IMG/VR virus record: IMGVR_UViG_3300046318_000318 | Source: a virus | Lineage: Duplodnaviria > Caudoviricetes | Reading direction: 5' to 3' (one strand) | DNA: 64,000 bases | Shown here: one piece after another, positions 6,086-61,803 of the stretch | Numbering within the stretch: position 1 is the first letter of the stretch | How the letters are laid out: each line of letters begins with the position of its first letter | The notes under the pieces: generated by a model | Database searches by the model: none | Told to the model about the DNA's origin: nothing | Seen by the model: only the letters and a program-made list of their open reading frames with translations | Translations under genes and position numbers: made by a program

Positions 6086-9000
6086 TTATTCTTCCACGTA
6101 CTTGGTTTTAAATCCGGTACAGGTGAACATGTGGTTGATGATCTGTATGGGTTTCGTGTTACCGTAAGTAACCAGATTCCTATCCACGATCTCTTTGATA
6201 TCAGAAGGTTTCTCAGCATCCAAGATGTTCCTTGCCATATGGCGCTGAACAAGAGGGTTACCAGATCTATCCAACATCTCAGCCACAGCTTCCCGACCAC
6301 AATACCCCACAAACAAACGACCCTCAGTCTCACCGATGGTCCTGACCGGTGTGTTGCGATAAGGTCTTGCATGCTTTTCACGACGGTTGACCTGAGCCAA
6401 CAATCCATGCAACTGAAGGTTGCCTGTGCTCACAGCTGTCCAGTCGTCAGCGATCTTTTCCAACAGCATCATGTACAGAGGAGCGATCCTTACATTTCTT
6501 TCCGTAGTCACCATTTCACCAGAATTACCACGATAGGTTACCTTACCGTAGACTGGTTTGTAAGGAGACGCCTCTATCCTTTTGACGATCTCTTTGGATG
6601 AGAGCTGTTTGTCAATAGGCACATAGGCATACGCATGGTTAGAGATGATACTGACCATGTGCTCAGCCTGACTCTCTGGTGTTACCATACTTGCGTAGTA
6701 CATGGCTTGTTTGTCTGAGAACAACTTATAGAAGTCCACGACATACTGATGCACGGCTTGTATCTTTTGGATATCGTGCTTAGCCAGTAACTGTTCTGCT
6801 GTCACAGCTGTGGGTGTCAATCGCTCATATCCAAATTGTTGTCTGACGTGCTGGGTGATGTCCCTCAGCGTAGCACTCATGTGCTGTTCATACAACCTAC
6901 CTAAGTTCATGCGGGAGATAGTAGATGCTGCGTCCATCACCACATCCGCACGATTGCCATTTTCGTCCACTGGCATGTTCTCAGGTTCCTCAGTTTTTAC
7001 AACTACGCCTTTCTTATTGTCCAGTAAAGTCGCTCAGCTTCACAGCTTACTCTCTTTACCCGGTGTGCTAAGACACCCGCCTGTACTTTCATACAGGAAC
7101 AGACTATATCTTCATCCTTCCTTTCGGTTAGGATGTCTCCCATTTCGAATCTTGCTAAGATCCTACGCCTTACGGCTAGTCGTTGGCCACACCCCATGTA
7201 AGTATATATGTACATACTTAGTTAGGAGCTTCGGTGCGGATTGCCCATATATCTTTATTAGTTTTACCTTACCTGTGTGATTAGCACAGCCGTTAACTCA
7301 TTTTCATGGTTAAGTTGGTCAATAAAGTTTTGGGGGTTCCCCGGCAATTAGAGAGATTTTTTGTATTTACATTACTGTAAATAGGTGGCAGGATTTTATA
7401 TTTCATTGGTAGTTACCAGACTTATTTCGATGTGTCGATCTAGCTAAGTCTAAAGATATTCTCTGGCCAGGTGGTAAATCCAGTCAGATATCTTAAAATG
7501 TAGTTCTCATATGGGATTTCATGATTATCATCCAAAAGCTCTATGACTTTATTTTGGTCTAGCTTAGTTTGATTTATAAAATCTTGAAAATTCCATACGG
7601 TTTGTTTACGCTCAGTGACATTGTAAACAATTATATCGAAAGTGTTGAACAACGTTTCCTTAAAACCTAAACCGCGAAGTAGTCTTGTTTTAAACTTCTC
7701 ACGGTCTATATTTAGTTGTCTTATCCACTCTTCAATAGGTTGTATTATATCACCGTACTTGACGTTTTGATGGTAGTATCTTACATTCACCATTTGCTCT
7801 CTTGGATTACTCCATTTACAATTAGCTTTGTAATAACCCTTATCGCCGTCTATTCTGTCGAGCGTTGTGTTGTCCGGTCTTGGACCCATATCGTCGTAAA
7901 AGTGCTTGAATGACTTAAGCCAGCTTTCACATATGGTGATCCCGCGTTCACCGTAAAGATGGTATTTTATGTTATTTTTATTAGTGCAACGCTGGATCAT
8001 ATTCTCCCAAGTAGAATATTCCCTGCTTTGCCATAAACCATGCTTTGTTTTATTAGCCTGACGGTAACACCCACAACTTTTATTTGTAGGTCTTTTCAAT
8101 AGAGGTAGACATATATTTTTAATTACGCCGCAATCACACTGGCATTTAAAAATACGCCCGCTCTTACCCATCGGAGCTTCTTCGAGAACTGTTAACATAT
8201 TGAAACGTTGTCCAATATCAATCTTGCTTCTGCTCATTTCATACTCACCTCTTTCTTTTAAATGATTTCAAATCGACACATCTGAAATCTAGGTTGTTGT
8301 TCTACCAATGAACTATAAATTTTTATTTACCACCATGATTATCGGTTAACTTAAACCCTTCGCATGGCTCTATGGTGTACTCAATCACAAACTGGATTTG
8401 ATATTCGTCAACAGATGTTTTCCGTGATTGGAGTTGCAGTGGTTGTTTAAAGCTACTGCTGTTGTGATTGGTTTGCACCATGGCTTCACAGACAAGCTTG
8501 TCAAACTTAGGTGTAGTCAAGATCTCATTTGTGCCAAACTTTGTTCTGTTGTCCTTGCGAAGAGAAATTTCCAGATCGATCACTTTCTTGTAAAAAGATT
8601 GATTGGCCTCATGGTACCTGTTTAGGTAGTGAGACATCTCCACCGGCATATTCTTAACAGGTGCGTTATTGCGAATGACTTTGACATCCACCACCACTCC
8701 ACCCCCACCTCGTACGTAGACAGCTTCGTCAAACATGTGGTCGACTTCCATCAGATCGATACGGGACATCTCTACAGGCGAAAGAGATGTGTTGAAATCT
8801 CTGAACGCCATGAGAATACCATCTTCACGGATCTTGTCACCAATCTCTGGGAAAGGTTTGACCTCGTTGATGGTACCGTAAAGGTTGAGCGGGAATTGTT
8901 TACTACCGAAGTTGACCACTCGGGTGTCATAGATCTTGAACTTAAGCTTAGGCAGAAAGTCCTTAGAGACCATAATACCGTCCTCAGCCACAGACGGAAT

Positions 9001-19285: not shown

Positions 19286-22200
19286 TAACTCTCCAACCAA
19301 GATGAGATTGTTGCAATATTAGGCTTTGGGATACTTACGTTACCTGAAACCTGGAACGGCTTAGTCATCTGAAATATGTTAAACTCTGGTGAGAGAGGAT
19401 ACCACATATTAGACATCTTTTCGTCAAGTGAGATAGAGACATTGAGAGCGTCCATAACTACCTCACTCTAGCTTTAACTAAGTTCGCTAAACTTATTGAT
19501 CTTGCTTAAGGATCCTGATACTTTCATATCAGATTAGACTATATCTTCATCTTTCGATGCTCTTCGTTTCCACTCGCTTGAGTGTACTCCCATGTGGGAT
19601 AGTCGTTGACCACACTCCATGTAAGTATATATGTCTATACTTAGTTAGGAGCTTCGGTGCGGATTGCCCAATCCTTGTATCTTTTACCATACCCAGATAG
19701 TTACTCTGGCCACTGCATATATTTCTATCGCAGTTTGGTGCACAAGGCTCTAAGGAGTTTCCCGCAATTAGAAGAGTTTAAACGACGGCAACACTCTACC
19801 GTCAAAATCAGCATTTGGCTTATTGTCCAGTAAAGTCGCTCAGCTTCACAGCTTACCCTCTTTACCCGGTGCGCTTACACACCCACCTGTACTTTCATAC
19901 AGGAACAGATCATATCTTCATCCTTATTAAAGGATGCTCTCCGCTTCTTCCCTGCTTAGGGCTTTACTCGGTCGCAACTCCGATGATCGTTGAACTTTAC
20001 GCATGGTTGATAAGAATCAACTTTAGCGTCTTAGCTGCTGATTACCCAATTCTTATATTTTTCAAACTATCACGCTCATCGTTTCCGATCACGTTGTAGT
20101 ATATAAGACTCTAAAGGACTTCCCAGCAATTCAAAGAGATAACTTAGTCAATTACTCAACTAAGTGCCTTATCTCATCATTATTAAAATACAATGTCAAT
20201 CGCCACACACCGCCTATCAATGCTTTTCTTCTAGCTATTGTAGGGATATATTGTCTAGCATACCCAAATTGCTGACTAATATCTATAGGACTTGTTATAA
20301 TCCTAGTTTCGCCAGTTTCAACGTTTTCGATAAAATATCCGTTACCCCTAAAAGATCTTTTATCGAGACATAATTGTTTAAAGTACCTCAGCTCCTTATC
20401 GGTAAGATCTTTAAACTGTCCGTTGAAACTAAATTGCCAACCTTTAATCGGAATGTTCTTTAATCTTTTATTTTTAATAGATAGTTGAACACCCCATGAA
20501 ACACCAGTTATTTTCTCACAAGCTGCCAGCGATTCAAATTTACGTTCTTTGCGTGTGAATATATTTCTAGCAGTAACTGGTATTTTTATTTGTAAATCTT
20601 CTAAGGATGGTTTTTCCTGAGGCCATGGTCTTGCATCTAATTTTCGTTTGAAACATAATCCGTCTGAATAGATTTTAATATCGGAAGATCTAAGTCTGAC
20701 GGACACGGTTAGTTCAGAATATCCAAGTTTCAGAGAGCAATCCCTAGCACTTTTATATTCAGTCACCTCATCCGTGATTATGTTTTTAACAAGTATTGCT
20801 GAACCATACCTGAATTGATCGTACTCATTTTCTAAATTTTCATAATTTTTCCATTCTTTTAATTCAGATAGCCATTGAAACTGCATGTAATTTTCCCAAA
20901 GTTTACAACCGGGTTTTGTTTTTAACCGATGGTAAAGTAAATCATTACTCAAGCCTAATGCAATTGCGCATTGCGTCGGGTTATCATAAATAGTGATTTC
21001 ATTGGTTTTAACATTTCTAGTTATGACGTCTATGGTATACTTTTTCTCATTTTCAAGAATTCTATTTACTTTTTCATCAGATCTATCACAATTCGAATAA
21101 ATGACATTTCCTCTAGGTGTCACCCATTCTAAATTATCTAAGGTGTCAAAGCCAGGTATCTCATTTTTATGATTTACGTACAGCGATTCAACGTTTCTAG
21201 GATAATCTAGCCATGCTAAGCACATAGCTCTGTGTCTGAAAAATTTGTAAGATGTATTCTCATTAAGGGAAACATCAGGAATACCTGAATAGGAATGGTA
21301 ACCATCTCTATCACAAAAAGCTTTTTTATCCACACCAGTTATCAAATTTCTAACTTTTCCTTCCTTTGTTATACCATATCTTGTAAAACCAGGAATATAA
21401 GCATGATCTTTGTGTACTGGATGTGATAAACCAACTGGAAATTTCCAAATCAAGTTGCTAGGATGAGAGTTATTAAAATCACCGTCCTCGAACATCAAGT
21501 GTAATAAATGCACTTGACTTTCATGAACGTGAACGGGCTTAAAAGCCGAAGCTATGATAAACTCTATTGGATATAGACCAGGACCTCTTATCCAATCTAA
21601 GAAAATCAAAGTGCTTCCTGTTTCAGTTGAGATACACTCAATCTGAATGTTCTCTCGCGATATGACATCACCTTCTGAGTTAACAGAATAACGACCGTCA
21701 GACCAGGGTAGCGAAAGATAGTTTTGGGTTTGTAAATATTTACTAAGCATATATCCTTTCTATATAGAAAGGTATGCTAAACGGCGATTGACAATAATGA
21801 TAAGAATTAAGCGCGCACTGTTAAAATGTGCATTCCAATAGTGAGGTCATTTGGGTTCTTTTTGAACTTAGTAATCTTCACTCGTTGAGCCGACCCCTGC
21901 AAAAGGCTCGGATTTCTTTGGAGACATACATACAAACCTTTATCAGGCGCTTCGTCTATCAGCTCCTGCATAAACCTTTCTAACAAGGGGTGGTGTTTGT
22001 TAGTATGTTTGTATAGGAAACCAATAGAGTCATTCAGACCCATGCCGTAACGCCGCAGCTTATTCAACATGTGGATACGGTAAGCTGTGGTGGCCATACA
22101 CCAAGGAGCTTCTATTTCATCATACTCTTTACCCGCTGTAATAGAGATGATAACTGCTCGGAATGAGAAGTTGGTTCTGGCTCCGAACATGTGTTTCCTG

Positions 22201-48744: not shown

Positions 48745-49978
48745 TAAATATAACCTTCTACGCAGAATAGCACTGCTCCAGTTAATTTACTTGCCTCTAC
48801 CAGACGGCTTTGTTTCTCTATTTATTACAAGATAGAGAAGGATGTGTCAGTCACCGCATCCAAGATATTTATAACACCGACTCGTGTTACCGGTTTGTCC
48901 AAACCTGGTGAAAGGATAAGCTACATCTGTTTAACTCAATCGCCACATACCCAGTAGTTCAGGTAAGGGTTAAGATGATTGTGCTATAATAAGCACAGAG
49001 CCTTAATACGACAGTGTTTTAATTCATCAACATAACACTGAAGATACCCGAGTTCTCAATAGAGAATCTCGCTGTATTTTTGATGCCTAAGCACTCTAAA
49101 GCTATCTCTCCTAAAATAAGAGATAGCTTATAGGCTGCTCTCTGGGGTGATCAATCCCAAAGTTTACAACTTCCCAAAGATATCATTCATACAGTTCCCG
49201 ACCAAGGGTAGTCTATATAAGAGATATCCATAGGGCGTACGATTTGGCGGTTGGTTAGACCACCTTCTACTCCTTAACAAAAAGTTAAAGGCAGGCTATT
49301 ATCGTGAGCGCACCTCTTTCTATTACACACTTGTGATGTGTTTCGTCCTTGTGTTTAAAGCCTTAGGACTCATCAGATAGATAAGGCTCAAATGAAGTTT
49401 ATGTGGCCTCATTCTTTTATAAAGGGGTTTTCCCATAGCAGACTAAATGACTTCTGTCTATCTAATCTGCTACAGGCAAACACCTGAGTGCTAACTTGTT
49501 ATCATATCACAAAGGTAGATAACCACAACCTATTACAATAAAGACGTGTGAATCGCCTGCTTGCTTTGGCAAGAACAGCCCTCGAAGCTAGAGCCACATC
49601 AGGTCTGAACAATCGTCAGAACACATGATCCCAGGGGATTTAAAAAGCATCAAACACAGTTCTGGGAAACTATGTGCTAGATCGACAGTTTATATTTTCC
49701 TTGTTTTATCAACTAAGTGAAAATACCGATCACTTTATACTGCTCCATCGTGCGTGTATTTTGTTATCACGCTAACGTCCCGATAGTACGTTTACCTAAG
49801 TTACCAATGGTCAATACCTGCACCCTAGCCTTACGCCCGCAAGCGATCTATTAACTTAACTCCGTAATCCGCAATGATATACGCACATTAAGAAATGTTT
49901 ACACACTAGATTTACTAAGCAGCGACTTGTTAGTTACCATTGATACGATCAAGTCTACTCCGGTTTACTTAGGTTAAA
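48745..49978 (-). ncRNA. candidate large structured ncRNA B (about 1.2 kb)
   Basis: no ORF of 60 aa or more on either strand; many hairpins, a long-range closing helix and a 10-bp pseudoknot; starts right after a tRNA CCA. Confidence 0.62.
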
Positions 49979-50036
49979 TGGTACCAGGAACGGGACTCGA
50001 ACCCGTAAGACCCTTGCGGAAGTATTAAGTTTTTAA
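49979..50036 (-). pseudogene. 3' half of a split tRNA-Leu (anticodon loop to CCA)
   Basis: TTAAAA-ACTTA, long variable arm, ACGGG-TTCGAGT-CCCGT, TCCTGGT-A-CCA. Confidence 0.82.
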
Positions 50037-50046
50037 AGTACATGGG

Positions 50047-50355
50047 TGGCCCGCTCCGGAATCGAACCGGAACGCCCCTTACGAAAGCGTCAGATTTTAA
50101 GTCTGATCTCTACCACTGCAGTTTTCACTGCCACTTTAGTGTGTTTGTGGTCTGGACTATCCCTTCAACTACATCCTAAATGTTTAGCTGGGCGATTATA
50201 GTCTCTGCACGTCTTTCTATATTTCTATAGAAATTTCGCTCAGGATTGGCATCAGCAATTAACTGTTAAGCTTTCCCTGAATTTACGCCATTTTACTACA
50301 TTATTTCTAATGTAGGACACATCAAATATATGTCTACCTATTTCATCAGCGGGCC
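50047..50355 (-). tRNA. tRNA-Leu(UAA), interrupted at 25/26; exons 50355-50330 and 50107-50047; CCA not encoded
   Basis: spliced cloverleaf with acceptor GGCCCGC/GCGGGCC, anticodon arm UCAGA-CUUAAAA-UCUGA and a long variable arm. Confidence 0.9.
50108..50329 (-). mobile_element. group I intron, IC3-like (222 nt), at the D-stem/anticodon-stem junction
   Basis: P1 GACAU|/GUGUC with U.G; P10 UUGAU pairs with 3' exon AUCAG; GUAAAUUCAGGGAAAGC, GCCAAUCCUGAGCG, GCAGAGACUA, AAGGGAUAGUCC; omega-G at 50108. Confidence 0.92.
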
Positions 50356-50366
50356 ACCCATGTACT

Positions 50367-50867
50367 CTATTTCTTTTCTAATCTGTAGTATTCTTTCTTT
50401 ATTTCAGTTCTTTCGATGATCACGCCGCCATTTTGAACTTTGGCGCCATAAGAACCTGAACATTTTTTACTACAAAAAGGACCTGCTCTATTAGAAACAT
50501 AATTAGTTATCTGATTTTTACTAGGGGTAAATATTTCCTCACACCCAGCACACTTTACAGGATCCACCTTTACTCGTTTAGCGTCTTCACTTGCGTGAAC
50601 AGGCAGTGTTTTAACAATAAGGTTATTTAGAGAATTATTGGTGAAATTTCTATCGTGATGGTCAACAGTCTCACCGTCTTTTAACTTTTGTTTTAATTCA
50701 ATTTCTTTTAAAGCCTTGGGGTAAGAGATGGTTTTGGTCTTACCTTTAGTCCCCTTAGCAGCTTTTGAATTATTTAAAACAATATGCTGTCGACCATCAC
50801 TTCTGTGATAAGGACCTAAGACGGATGTATATTCTGGATATAATCCAAGAAGTATTTGCTTATCCAT
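50367..50867 (-). CDS. free-standing HNH endonuclease
   Basis: TVDHHDRNFTNNSLNNL HNH motif; C-terminal CAGC...FCSKKC Zn ribbon. Confidence 0.85.
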   Translation of the reverse strand: MDKQILLGLYPEYTSVLGPYHRSDGRQHIVLNNSKAAKGTKGKTKTISYPKALKEIELKQKLKDGETVDHHDRNFTNNSLNNLIVKTLPVHASEDAKRVKVDPVKCAGCEEIFTPSKNQITNYVSNRAGPFCSKKCSGSYGAKVQNGGVIIERTEIKKEYYRLEKK

Positions 50868-50871
50868 GTTT

Positions 50872-50898
50872 TCCCTTTACCGATTTGGGCATCCTGGT
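50872..50898 (-). pseudogene. 5' half of the split tRNA-Leu (acceptor and D-arm)
   Basis: ACCAGGA-TG-CCCAAATCGGTAAAGGG-A; ACCAGGA is the exact complement of TCCTGGT in the 3' half at 49983-49989. Confidence 0.8.
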
Positions 50899-60258: not shown

Positions 60259-61803
60259 TTACATGTTCAAAGCGTAACCGACACAATACAGATAAGGCGT
60301 GACTCCATCAAAGGACTCCACCATAAAGCTGAATGTATCGATTTTGTTGTTGATCAAAGTAAGAGCTGGAGCTGCACCATCAGGGAACTTCACGTTAGCT
60401 GGGAATACAAGATCACCACCTTTGTGAATAATAACCACTTTGTAGTCAAAACCTATCCGTGTGAGATCTAAGTTCTGAATATTGAAGTTGGTTACGTTAG
60501 AGATTAACTCTATACGGATAACCTGATGAGTATCTAAATCCCAAGAAACAGTACCCGAAGCTGGCTGTACTTTATTGGTAGTAGAGACTTTCTGTGGTTT
60601 GGTGAAGTTATTCTCTGCGGAAGGAGACATGTAGTCTGTACCAGCAGCAGCTAAAGTCAATATGTTGTTGGTAGTCTTTAACAGACCTGTTCCGGCAACG
60701 TTGATACCACCACCCACACCGCCACCTGTGCTTATTACACTGATGGCGTCTGATAAAGCCACCATATCGGTTATGATACCGTTACCAGTAATACCTGGGG
60801 TGATGCCGTTAACTATGTCTGATAAAGCAGTTAAGCTTGTGATGTCAGCTTTTAAAACATTTATACCATTGACTGTGTCAGTCAATGCATCTAAGGCAAC
60901 CTGACTGGCTTTACTCAGAGAAAGAGCATTTACCGTATCACTTAAGACATCAAGATCTACCTGCGTAGCTTTAAGCTGATTAATTTGATTAACCAAATCA
61001 CTCAATGCATCCAAATCTACTTGACTTGCTTTACCAGCTATCAATACAGAATGCGATTGAATAAGGGTAGTCAGTGCGGTGATTTCAGCATTTATAGCTG
61101 TAAGGTCTACAGTACCGCCACCGCCACCACCGCCCCCAGCTTGTAAGTTTGTTACTGCTGTTTGCAGATTGGTAATGATAGTAGACAAACCAGAAGTGTC
61201 AGCAATAGCGTGTCCATGACCAATAGCTGATTTACCTGCTAAACTGGTTTGGATAGAACCTAAACTATCATTCAGTCCCGATATGCTAGACATGTCATGA
61301 ACATGACTAACAGCTGCTTTACCAGCCAATGCTGGTGATAATCCAGCTATAGTAGTCATGTCGTGTACATGACCAGTTTCAGCTTTCATAGACAAAGTCT
61401 GTGCTAAGAGACTGATATCATCTATAGCGTGCGTATGGCCTAAAGCAGCCTTACCAGCCAACGACAGATCAAGACCACTTATCTCAGAGCTAACGTGCGT
61501 ATGTCCAAAATTAGACTTGCCAGCCAGAGCCGTCATCAAACCTGAGATATCATCTGTAGCTAGGGTATGTGTGTGATTTGCATCAGCTTTACTTAGCAAA
61601 GCAGTCAGCACAGCAGTTGATACTGGCTTATCGGCATCACTTGTGTTGCTGACATTACCCAGACCCACATCTTGTTTAGTGAGTATAGATTTAAAAGTAT
61701 TCAGAGTCATTCGGTAATTCTGATTACCAAATATCAAAGACACTTGTTCCAGACCTGTGGCTGTGGTTAACAGCGAAAAGTCACTTATCTTTCTATTAGC
61801 CAT
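60259..61803 (-). CDS. tail fibre protein with HxH repeats, coiled coil and a distinct C-terminal domain
   Basis: MANRKIS N-terminal module, six HxH repeats, poly-Gly hinge, heptad repeats. Confidence 0.75.
   Translation of the reverse strand: MANRKISDFSLLTTATGLEQVSLIFGNQNYRMTLNTFKSILTKQDVGLGNVSNTSDADKPVSTAVLTALLSKADANHTHTLATDDISGLMTALAGKSNFGHTHVSSEISGLDLSLAGKAALGHTHAIDDISLLAQTLSMKAETGHVHDMTTIAGLSPALAGKAAVSHVHDMSSISGLNDSLGSIQTSLAGKSAIGHGHAIADTSGLSTIITNLQTAVTNLQAGGGGGGGGTVDLTAINAEITALTTLIQSHSVLIAGKASQVDLDALSDLVNQINQLKATQVDLDVLSDTVNALSLSKASQVALDALTDTVNGINVLKADITSLTALSDIVNGITPGITGNGIITDMVALSDAISVISTGGGVGGGINVAGTGLLKTTNNILTLAAAGTDYMSPSAENNFTKPQKVSTTNKVQPASGTVSWDLDTHQVIRIELISNVTNFNIQNLDLTRIGFDYKVVIIHKGGDLVFPANVKFPDGAAPALTLINNKIDTFSFMVESFDGVTPYLYCVGYALNM

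Follow-up and report, generated by a model that had tools for sequence, protein, structure and literature searches.

The tRNA-Ile(CAU) intron of Azoarcus is a compact group I intron with GNRA loops and a short P1 helix that ends in CAU.G. Structural work on this intron has been reviewed (PMC3984707). The bacterial tRNA group I introns described so far sit in the anticodon loop (PMC4033280, PMC5733544, PMC8450103), as had also been stated in the initial annotation of the DNA studied here. In phages, the group I introns known by 2014 were all located in protein genes (PMC3984707), and a preprint on Lak megaphages describes short unexplained tRNA introns, which its authors believed to be the first reported from phages (10.1101/356790). 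Collaborative (trans) homing links a free-standing endonuclease to an ORF-less intron and is exemplified by the cyanophage psbA gene and F-CphI (PMC3984707, figure 5). Introns at non-canonical tRNA positions, the D arm included, are found among the bulge-helix-bulge introns of archaea (PMC4090602, PMC4033280). A search of the full-text literature, mostly outside subscription journals, did not reveal a description of a group I intron located in the D arm of a tRNA. A group II intron was reportedly located in the D stem of chloroplast trnG(UCC) by Deno and Sugiura in 1984.

The DNA analyzed here is a stretch of 64,000 nucleotides (IMG/VR record IMGVR_UViG_3300046318_000318; the window) from a phiKZ-like jumbo phage of freshwater metagenomic origin. 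Among the proteins of this phage are a divergent DNA polymerase of family B and an RNA polymerase with a split beta subunit. [quoted passage not shown] Two tRNA-Leu(UAA) genes are distinguished at the locus, the interrupted resident gene A and the intron-bearing gene B, and its features are the following:

50898-50871, minus strand: 5' remnant of resident gene A, a tRNA-Leu(UAA), nucleotide 1 to about 27 (27-28 nt)
50867-50367, minus strand: free-standing HNH endonuclease gene (166 aa), ending 12 nt before tRNA-Leu B
50369-50356, minus strand: leader strand, which prolongs the acceptor stem and overlaps the HNH stop codon
50355-50330, minus strand: 5' exon of tRNA-Leu(UAA) B (26 nt) with the acceptor 5' strand, D-stem and D-loop, ending in GACAU
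50329-50108, minus strand: group I intron (222 nt, ORF-less)
50325-50321, minus strand: P10 part of the intron guide, UUGAU
50320-50316, minus strand: P1 part of the intron guide, GUGUC, the guide lying directly 5' of P2
50315-50296, minus strand: intron P2, 8 bp with a GAAA loop
50203-50199 and 50159-50155, minus strand: the two strands of intron P7
about 50130-50119, minus strand: intron P9.1 hairpin with a GAAA loop
50108, minus strand: omega-G, the last base of the intron
50107-50047, minus strand: 3' exon of tRNA-Leu(UAA) B (61 nt), starting with AUCAG and ending with the discriminator A
50047-50034, minus strand: trailer strand, which starts at the discriminator base
50033-49979, minus strand: 3' remnant of the resident tRNA-Leu A, from an anticodon-loop-like UUAAAA onward

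The initial annotation had proposed a group I intron at position 25/26 of a tRNA-Leu(UAA) gene, the removal of which leaves a clean tRNA-Leu, and had named covariance models and a tRNA gene finder as the means of checking this. Both analyses bear the proposal out. When the whole window was searched with Rfam, the group I intron model RF00028 matched positions 50339-50131 over its full length (model positions 1-253) with 59.7 bits (E 1.3e-12), which is above the gathering score of 50, and six further copies at the same site (see below) add to this evidence. Neither ARAGORN nor the Rfam tRNA model called a tRNA in the unspliced genomic stretch. After in silico removal of the intron, for which the coordinates first drawn proved exact, ARAGORN reported a clean 87-nt class II tRNA-Leu(taa) with a 3-bp D-stem, an 11-nt D-loop containing GG, a long variable arm and the T-loop UUCGAUU. 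The 3' exon contributes A26, the anticodon arm (UAA), the long variable arm, the T arm and the acceptor 3' strand. The CCA terminus is incompletely encoded, with CC following the discriminator A. No sense-strand ORF was found in the 222-nt intron. Folding of the precursor gave z = -8.4 relative to shuffles, and its minimum-energy fold holds P1, P2 and a 20-bp helix made up of the acceptor stem and the leader/trailer pairing. Judged by this z value and by the compensatory changes in the homologues, the element is a conserved RNA, and a chance resemblance is discounted. The 601-nt region gave no DNA match to GenBank phages. Exact-pattern scans of IMG/VR for the 3' exon, the spliced junction and the 5' junction were equally without a match, and these scans did not uncover an intronless allele of tRNA-Leu B.

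The splice sites are defined by the guide (UUGAU followed by GUGUC), which pairs with each exon at five of five positions. P1 is formed between GACAU at the end of the 5' exon and GUGUC and places a U.G pair at the 5' splice site, while P10 is formed between AUCAG at the start of the 3' exon and UUGAU. Cuts that are shifted by 1 or 2 nt give an identical ligated sequence; only the 25/26 junction, as first drawn, has a U at position -1 together with a G at the 3' end of the intron. This U(-1)/omega-G rule and the covariation of P1 and P10 across copies sustain the earlier claim that these two helices fix the splice sites. The predicted ligated joint is ...GGUAGACAU joined directly to AUCAGACUU... 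(GACAU followed by AUCAG). In an alignment with intronless tRNA-Leu genes, the D arm formed by ligation is of normal length and in register, which places the cut between the last D-stem base, U25, and A26. As the 26-nt 5' exon comprises nucleotides 1-25 plus a numbering insert, the junction follows nucleotide 26 of the gene (standard position 25/26). It is situated 9 nt upstream of position 34/35, outside the anticodon loop that harbors the classical Leu-UAA introns.

Relatives were identified by a search with the upstream HNH protein and inspection of the genomic contexts, and by a degenerate junction pattern that was run against IMG/VR. Six more copies of the 25/26 intron were obtained from other metagenomic phages (L005, L021, L030, L095, L097 and L098; the fragment L010 is of the same kind as L030 and was counted together with it). 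One match of the junction pattern in a bacterial MAG (L099) lies between ribosomal protein genes and was rejected as a chance match. In all seven copies, the window included, the same cut produces tRNA-Leu(taa), P1 is paired at five of five positions and the terminal omega-G is present; the introns are 219-223 nt long. P10 is paired at 4-5 of 5 positions, with one mismatch in four of the seven copies. P1 consists of GACAU/GUGUC in six copies and of GACGU/GCGUC in L095. In this copy a three-way covariation is observed, as the D-stem pair U11-A24 is replaced by C-G and the U of the guide by C. The exon base thus covaries with both of its alternative partners, and L095 is decisive in its support for the predicted P1. 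P10 displays double compensations (AUCAG/UUGAU versus AAGAG/UUCUU, two changes). Five aligned copies revealed compensatory pairs in P2 (four), P3 (two), P5a, P6, P8 and P9.1 (4/4) of the intron, and likewise in the acceptor stem (7/7), the anticodon stem and the leader/trailer helix. In L097 and L098, the tRNA-Leu gene with the 25/26 intron stands alone, in one of the two behind a sigma-70-like promoter, which speaks for use of the interrupted gene.

The acceptor stem of tRNA-Leu B is extended by the leader/trailer helix, which contains 14 contiguous pairs in the window. Six of the seven 25/26 copies have the helix, paired at 9-11 of the first 11 positions and showing both compensatory and G.U changes; the exception is L098, where the gene has a promoter of its own at its start. 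The helix was not found in 37 intronless neighbors (mean 4.4, maximum 8 pairs of 11) or in the copies with introns at 34/35 and 31/32. Since the exons of a 25/26 intron cannot pair beside the splice site in the way that the anticodon stem does classically, the helix is read as an exon clamp or a processing site. Its probable role is to hold the short 5' exon to the 3' exon, or else to mark a position for processing.

The arrangement at 49979-50898 (minus strand) is that of a tRNA within a tRNA, with the HNH gene and the intron-bearing tRNA-Leu nested in the resident tRNA-Leu(UAA). The initial annotation had overlooked this setting, namely the HNH gene, the nesting in the resident tRNA and the leader/trailer helix. 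The last 34 nt of the 3' remnant of gene A (50012-49979) are identical to the intact gene in the sister contig L001. In that contig, in which the neighboring DprA is 97% identical, the resident tRNA-Leu is intact at 7216-7304 and is accompanied by neither the HNH gene nor the inner tRNA. The whole resident gene in L001 thus shows that an 833-nt cassette, composed of the HNH gene and the spare tRNA-Leu, replaced bases 28 to about 47 of gene A. Rebuilding gene A from its two halves gave only poor, mismatched anticodon stems, and the gene was therefore treated as broken. The same nesting was observed in ten other loci (L002, L004, L005, L008, L011, L013, L021, L023, L092 and L095). In the window, an endonuclease gene is found next to a gene with an ORF-less intron, which is the arrangement that characterizes collaborative homing. 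The sister phages display a reciprocal presence and absence at a further tRNA gene. The tRNA-Thr of L001 (6617-7150) is broken after the D-loop by a different, 170-aa HNH-like ORF (6660-7172), and its 3' part has no pairing to the 5' acceptor strand; tRNA-Thr is intact in the window (51037-50963).

The HNH protein matches phrog_14913 (E 8.6e-15), and Pfam HNH_3 is matched weakly, with 20.2 bits, which is under the cut-off of that model. The D-H...N...H motif is intact, and D69, H70, N82 and H91 as well as four cysteines are invariant in 44 homologues. Relatives of the protein adjoin tRNA-Leu(UAA) in most of about 90 loci, in these arrangements:

41 loci: HNH gene followed within about 150 nt by an intronless tRNA-Leu(UAA)
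11 loci: intronless tRNA-Leu(UAA) immediately upstream of the HNH gene
6 loci: next tRNA-Leu with a 25/26 intron
3 loci: next tRNA-Leu with an ORF-less 34/35 intron
5 loci: HNH gene within a 34/35 Leu intron, in the segment that separates the guide from the 5' exon
2 loci: HNH relatives with a tRNA-Leu intron near 31/32 (provisional site)

The last two loci (L014, 2544-2875; L020, 2486-2822) contain tRNA-Leu(UAA) after the HNH relatives, with 31/32 as the candidate intron site. Their introns have an A (paired to U) at position -1 in place of the near-universal U.G, and P1 and the cut are provisional. Outer tRNA-Leu remnants flank the cassette in many loci, and the cassette junctions in the resident tRNAs fall between about nucleotides 21 and 34. 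In the tRNA arrays of cultured Salmonella phages (PVP-SE1 group) and Klebsiella phages, tRNA-Leu is immediately preceded by a gene for an HNH homologue. In a Salmonella phage (L090, PQ002170.1) and in Klebsiella phage KP13-16 (L091), the HNH protein is about 40% identical and its gene abuts or overlaps the start of an intronless tRNA-Leu. These two cultured phages would offer a ready experimental system for the target of the HNH protein. One subclade of the HNH tree contains a mixture of 25/26, 34/35 and intronless partners, which indicates that turnover of the intron state in the partner tRNA outpaces change in the nuclease. The data fit a tRNA-Leu-directed homing endonuclease that would act both as a passenger of introns and as the free-standing partner of ORF-less introns.

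The 25/26 introns are 75-90% identical to the window copy and form one clade with a support of 1.0, which branches among the 34/35 tRNA-Leu introns. Their nearest outsiders are the 34/35 introns of tRNA-Leu(UAA) in L054 (63% identity) and L070 (62%), both of which are tied to the same HNH family. The 25/26 and 34/35 Leu introns share the 3' tail AGUGGUA(A)AG and the GNRA hairpin that precedes it. Two other introns of the window, in tRNA-Arg(UCU) and in a CAU-tRNA, are 60% and 55% identical to the Leu intron, respectively. From the CAU at the end of the 5' exon and from the start of the intron, the initial annotation had suggested that an Azoarcus-like CAU intron may have reverse-spliced into a new CAU site. 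This origin is not supported in the form proposed, as the closest kin are the 34/35 Leu introns (62-63%) and the CAU-tRNA intron reaches only 55%. The exon of L095 uses CGU with a matching guide, and CAU is therefore not essential. As far as the sequences tell, the simplest history would be a single relocation of a Leu 34/35-type intron 9 nt upstream, with its guide retuned, by way of either reverse splicing or break repair.

A metatranscriptome contig (X18, 50189-50403) crosses the 5' exon-intron boundary in unspliced form; rare forms are dropped from such contigs. The exon-exon joint was not found in the RNA and DNA contigs aligned to the locus; the X18 contigs are patchy and capture mature tRNAs poorly. 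Odd contig joints (37313/50142) were traced to intron-core words that are common to several introns, and a rearrangement was discounted. The lack of spliced RNA in these contigs could be taken to mean that the intron, or else the tRNA, is a relic in decay, so that a formerly mobile intron would be stranded in a defunct spare gene from which no working tRNA is made, and the resident tRNA-Leu beside it is indeed a pseudogene, so decay does occur at the locus. Yet the core helices, P1, P10 and the tRNA stems have been kept by compensatory changes in seven copies that are 75-90% identical, the Rfam score exceeds the gathering score, and two of the copies are stand-alone tRNA-Leu genes, which makes a relic highly improbable. 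A junction at another place is more improbable still. In that case the true D arm would be supplied by the 3' end of the insert (..CUGCAGUGGUAGAG), which resembles one, and splicing would remove the D arm that lies upstream, an arrangement to which a weak Rfam tRNA match at 50122-50055 (23.4 bits versus a gathering score of 29) and the tolerance of ARAGORN for several alternative cuts might be thought to point. None of the alternative cuts has a matching guide, however, a D arm that agrees in length and register with that of intronless tRNA-Leu genes arises from the 25/26 cut alone, and the covariation of P1 and P10 backs this cut. The AGUGGUA(A)AG tail also ends the 34/35 Leu introns, where no D arm is possible; the D-arm look is thereby explained and the alternative ruled out.

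It is unlikely, if less so, that a real group I intron at 25/26 depends for its splicing on a phage or host protein such as a chaperone or a maturase-like factor. P1 and the D-stem compete for the bases CAU, P10 and the anticodon stem compete for UCAG, and folding could need help for P1 and P10 to out-compete the two stems; in addition, P10 is imperfect in four of the seven copies. Against a need for protein, small tRNA introns such as those of Azoarcus and Anabaena self-splice efficiently (PMC3984707), and the core of the intron is complete and includes GNRA loops. The intron most likely self-splices. Overall, the evidence argues strongly for a functional, ORF-less group I intron at position 25/26 of a spare tRNA, which belongs to a mobile HNH cassette that has inserted into the resident tRNA-Leu.

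For this functional intron, splicing would begin in a precursor in which GACAU of the D-loop and D-stem pairs with the guide GUGUC to form P1, with U.G at the cleavage site. Free guanosine would attack after U25, the terminal G (50108) would then move into the G site in P7 and AUCAG of the 3' exon would align on UUGAU as P10, and ligation of the exons would give the 87-nt class II tRNA-Leu. The leader/trailer helix of 10-14 bp would prolong the acceptor stem throughout and either hold the exons together or mark a processing site. At the level of DNA, the cassette of HNH gene and spare tRNA-Leu has inserted into the resident tRNA-Leu gene and destroyed it. By analogy with collaborative homing, the intron may make the spare tRNA-Leu gene uncuttable by the HNH protein, for which we see a little less than an even chance; the many HNH cassettes that carry an intronless spare tRNA count against such an immunity role. 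More tentatively, the locus could be a self-contained homing element of an undescribed kind that combines a tRNA-Leu-specific HNH endonuclease with a spare tRNA-Leu and uses the resident halves as homology arms, and that could invade any phage with that tRNA. The spare gene would be immune through an intron that moved from 34/35 to the nuclease site at 25/26, and the leader/trailer clamp would have evolved to retain the short 5' exon while splicing proceeds.

Six group I introns were detected in the 64 kb. A tRNA-Arg(UCU) gene (37551-37246, minus strand) contains a 229-nt group I intron (37517-37289) at the site U34/C35, which with 49.1 bits scores just under the Rfam gathering score; the gene was missed by ARAGORN and the Rfam tRNA model. 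A tRNA-like gene at 37250-36927 (minus strand) harbors a group I intron at 37227-36974 (87.7 bits with Rfam), apparently after a CAU anticodon. The ligated form of this CAU-tRNA was rejected by ARAGORN on account of A8 and a G27.A43 mismatch. Further group I introns at 7080-7407, 19515-19807 and 19886-20196 (minus strand; 69-84 bits with Rfam) presumably reside in protein-coding genes. A 93-nt tRNA-Met called by ARAGORN at 61240-61332 is probably false, as it falls within an ORF of 514 aa, in which GH-rich motifs are repeated, and has no Rfam support. Downstream of the tRNA locus, 1.2 kb without ORFs (48745-49978) are conserved in L001 and show the highest RNA-contig depth of the region covered (105x at 49533-49776, X18). 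This segment matched no Rfam family at E values up to 1, hammerhead included; a CUGAUGA...GAAAC motif is visible.

The bias towards the anticodon loop has shaped ideas on the origin of tRNA introns and on their use of the tRNA fold. The 25/26 class suggests that bases of the D arm, too, can be recruited by a ribozyme as a substrate helix, and it provides a natural test case for the relocation of an intron within one gene. As genes of this kind are missed by ARAGORN and the Rfam tRNA model, the tRNA sets of phages are under-counted; this window alone holds three tRNA-type genes with group I introns, to be compared with the 2014 review cited above. The cassette further suggests how a selfish element can strike at an essential RNA gene and yet leave its carrier unharmed.

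In comparison with known systems, the classical tRNA-Leu(UAA) intron at 34/35 is the nearest. It occupies the same host gene, is small and ORF-less, uses a guide that pairs with tRNA bases, shares the 3' tail motif and is the closest sequence relative of the window intron (62-63%). The classical intron is inserted between U34 and A35 in the anticodon loop, whereas the phage intron lies between U25 and A26, 9 nt upstream and beside an HNH gene, and derives its P1 from the D-loop and D-stem. The Azoarcus intron resembles it in the short P1 with a CAU.G end, the compact fold and the GNRA loops, but is located in the anticodon loop after a CAU anticodon, while the window intron is located at 25/26, in a class for which L095 shows CAU to be dispensable. 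The chloroplast trnG(UCC) intron is reportedly also a ribozyme-type intron in the D-stem region, outside the anticodon loop; it is said to be a group II intron, organellar and protein-dependent, in contrast to the group I intron of a phage described here. Archaeal introns share the placement outside the anticodon loop, but have no ribozyme core and depend on a protein endonuclease and a ligase for their removal. T4 SegB and other free-standing endonucleases of phage tRNA clusters are likewise embedded among tRNA genes and spread by double-strand-break repair (PMC13096335; PMC2988022). Unlike the HNH protein, SegB is a GIY-YIG enzyme that is tied to no single tRNA species and has no intron or nested spare tRNA. 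With collaborative homing, the locus has in common that a free-standing endonuclease gene adjoins a gene with an ORF-less intron and that relatives of the endonuclease reside inside introns elsewhere. It differs in that the target is a tRNA gene and that the pair carries a complete spare gene and sits in the gene that it destroyed.
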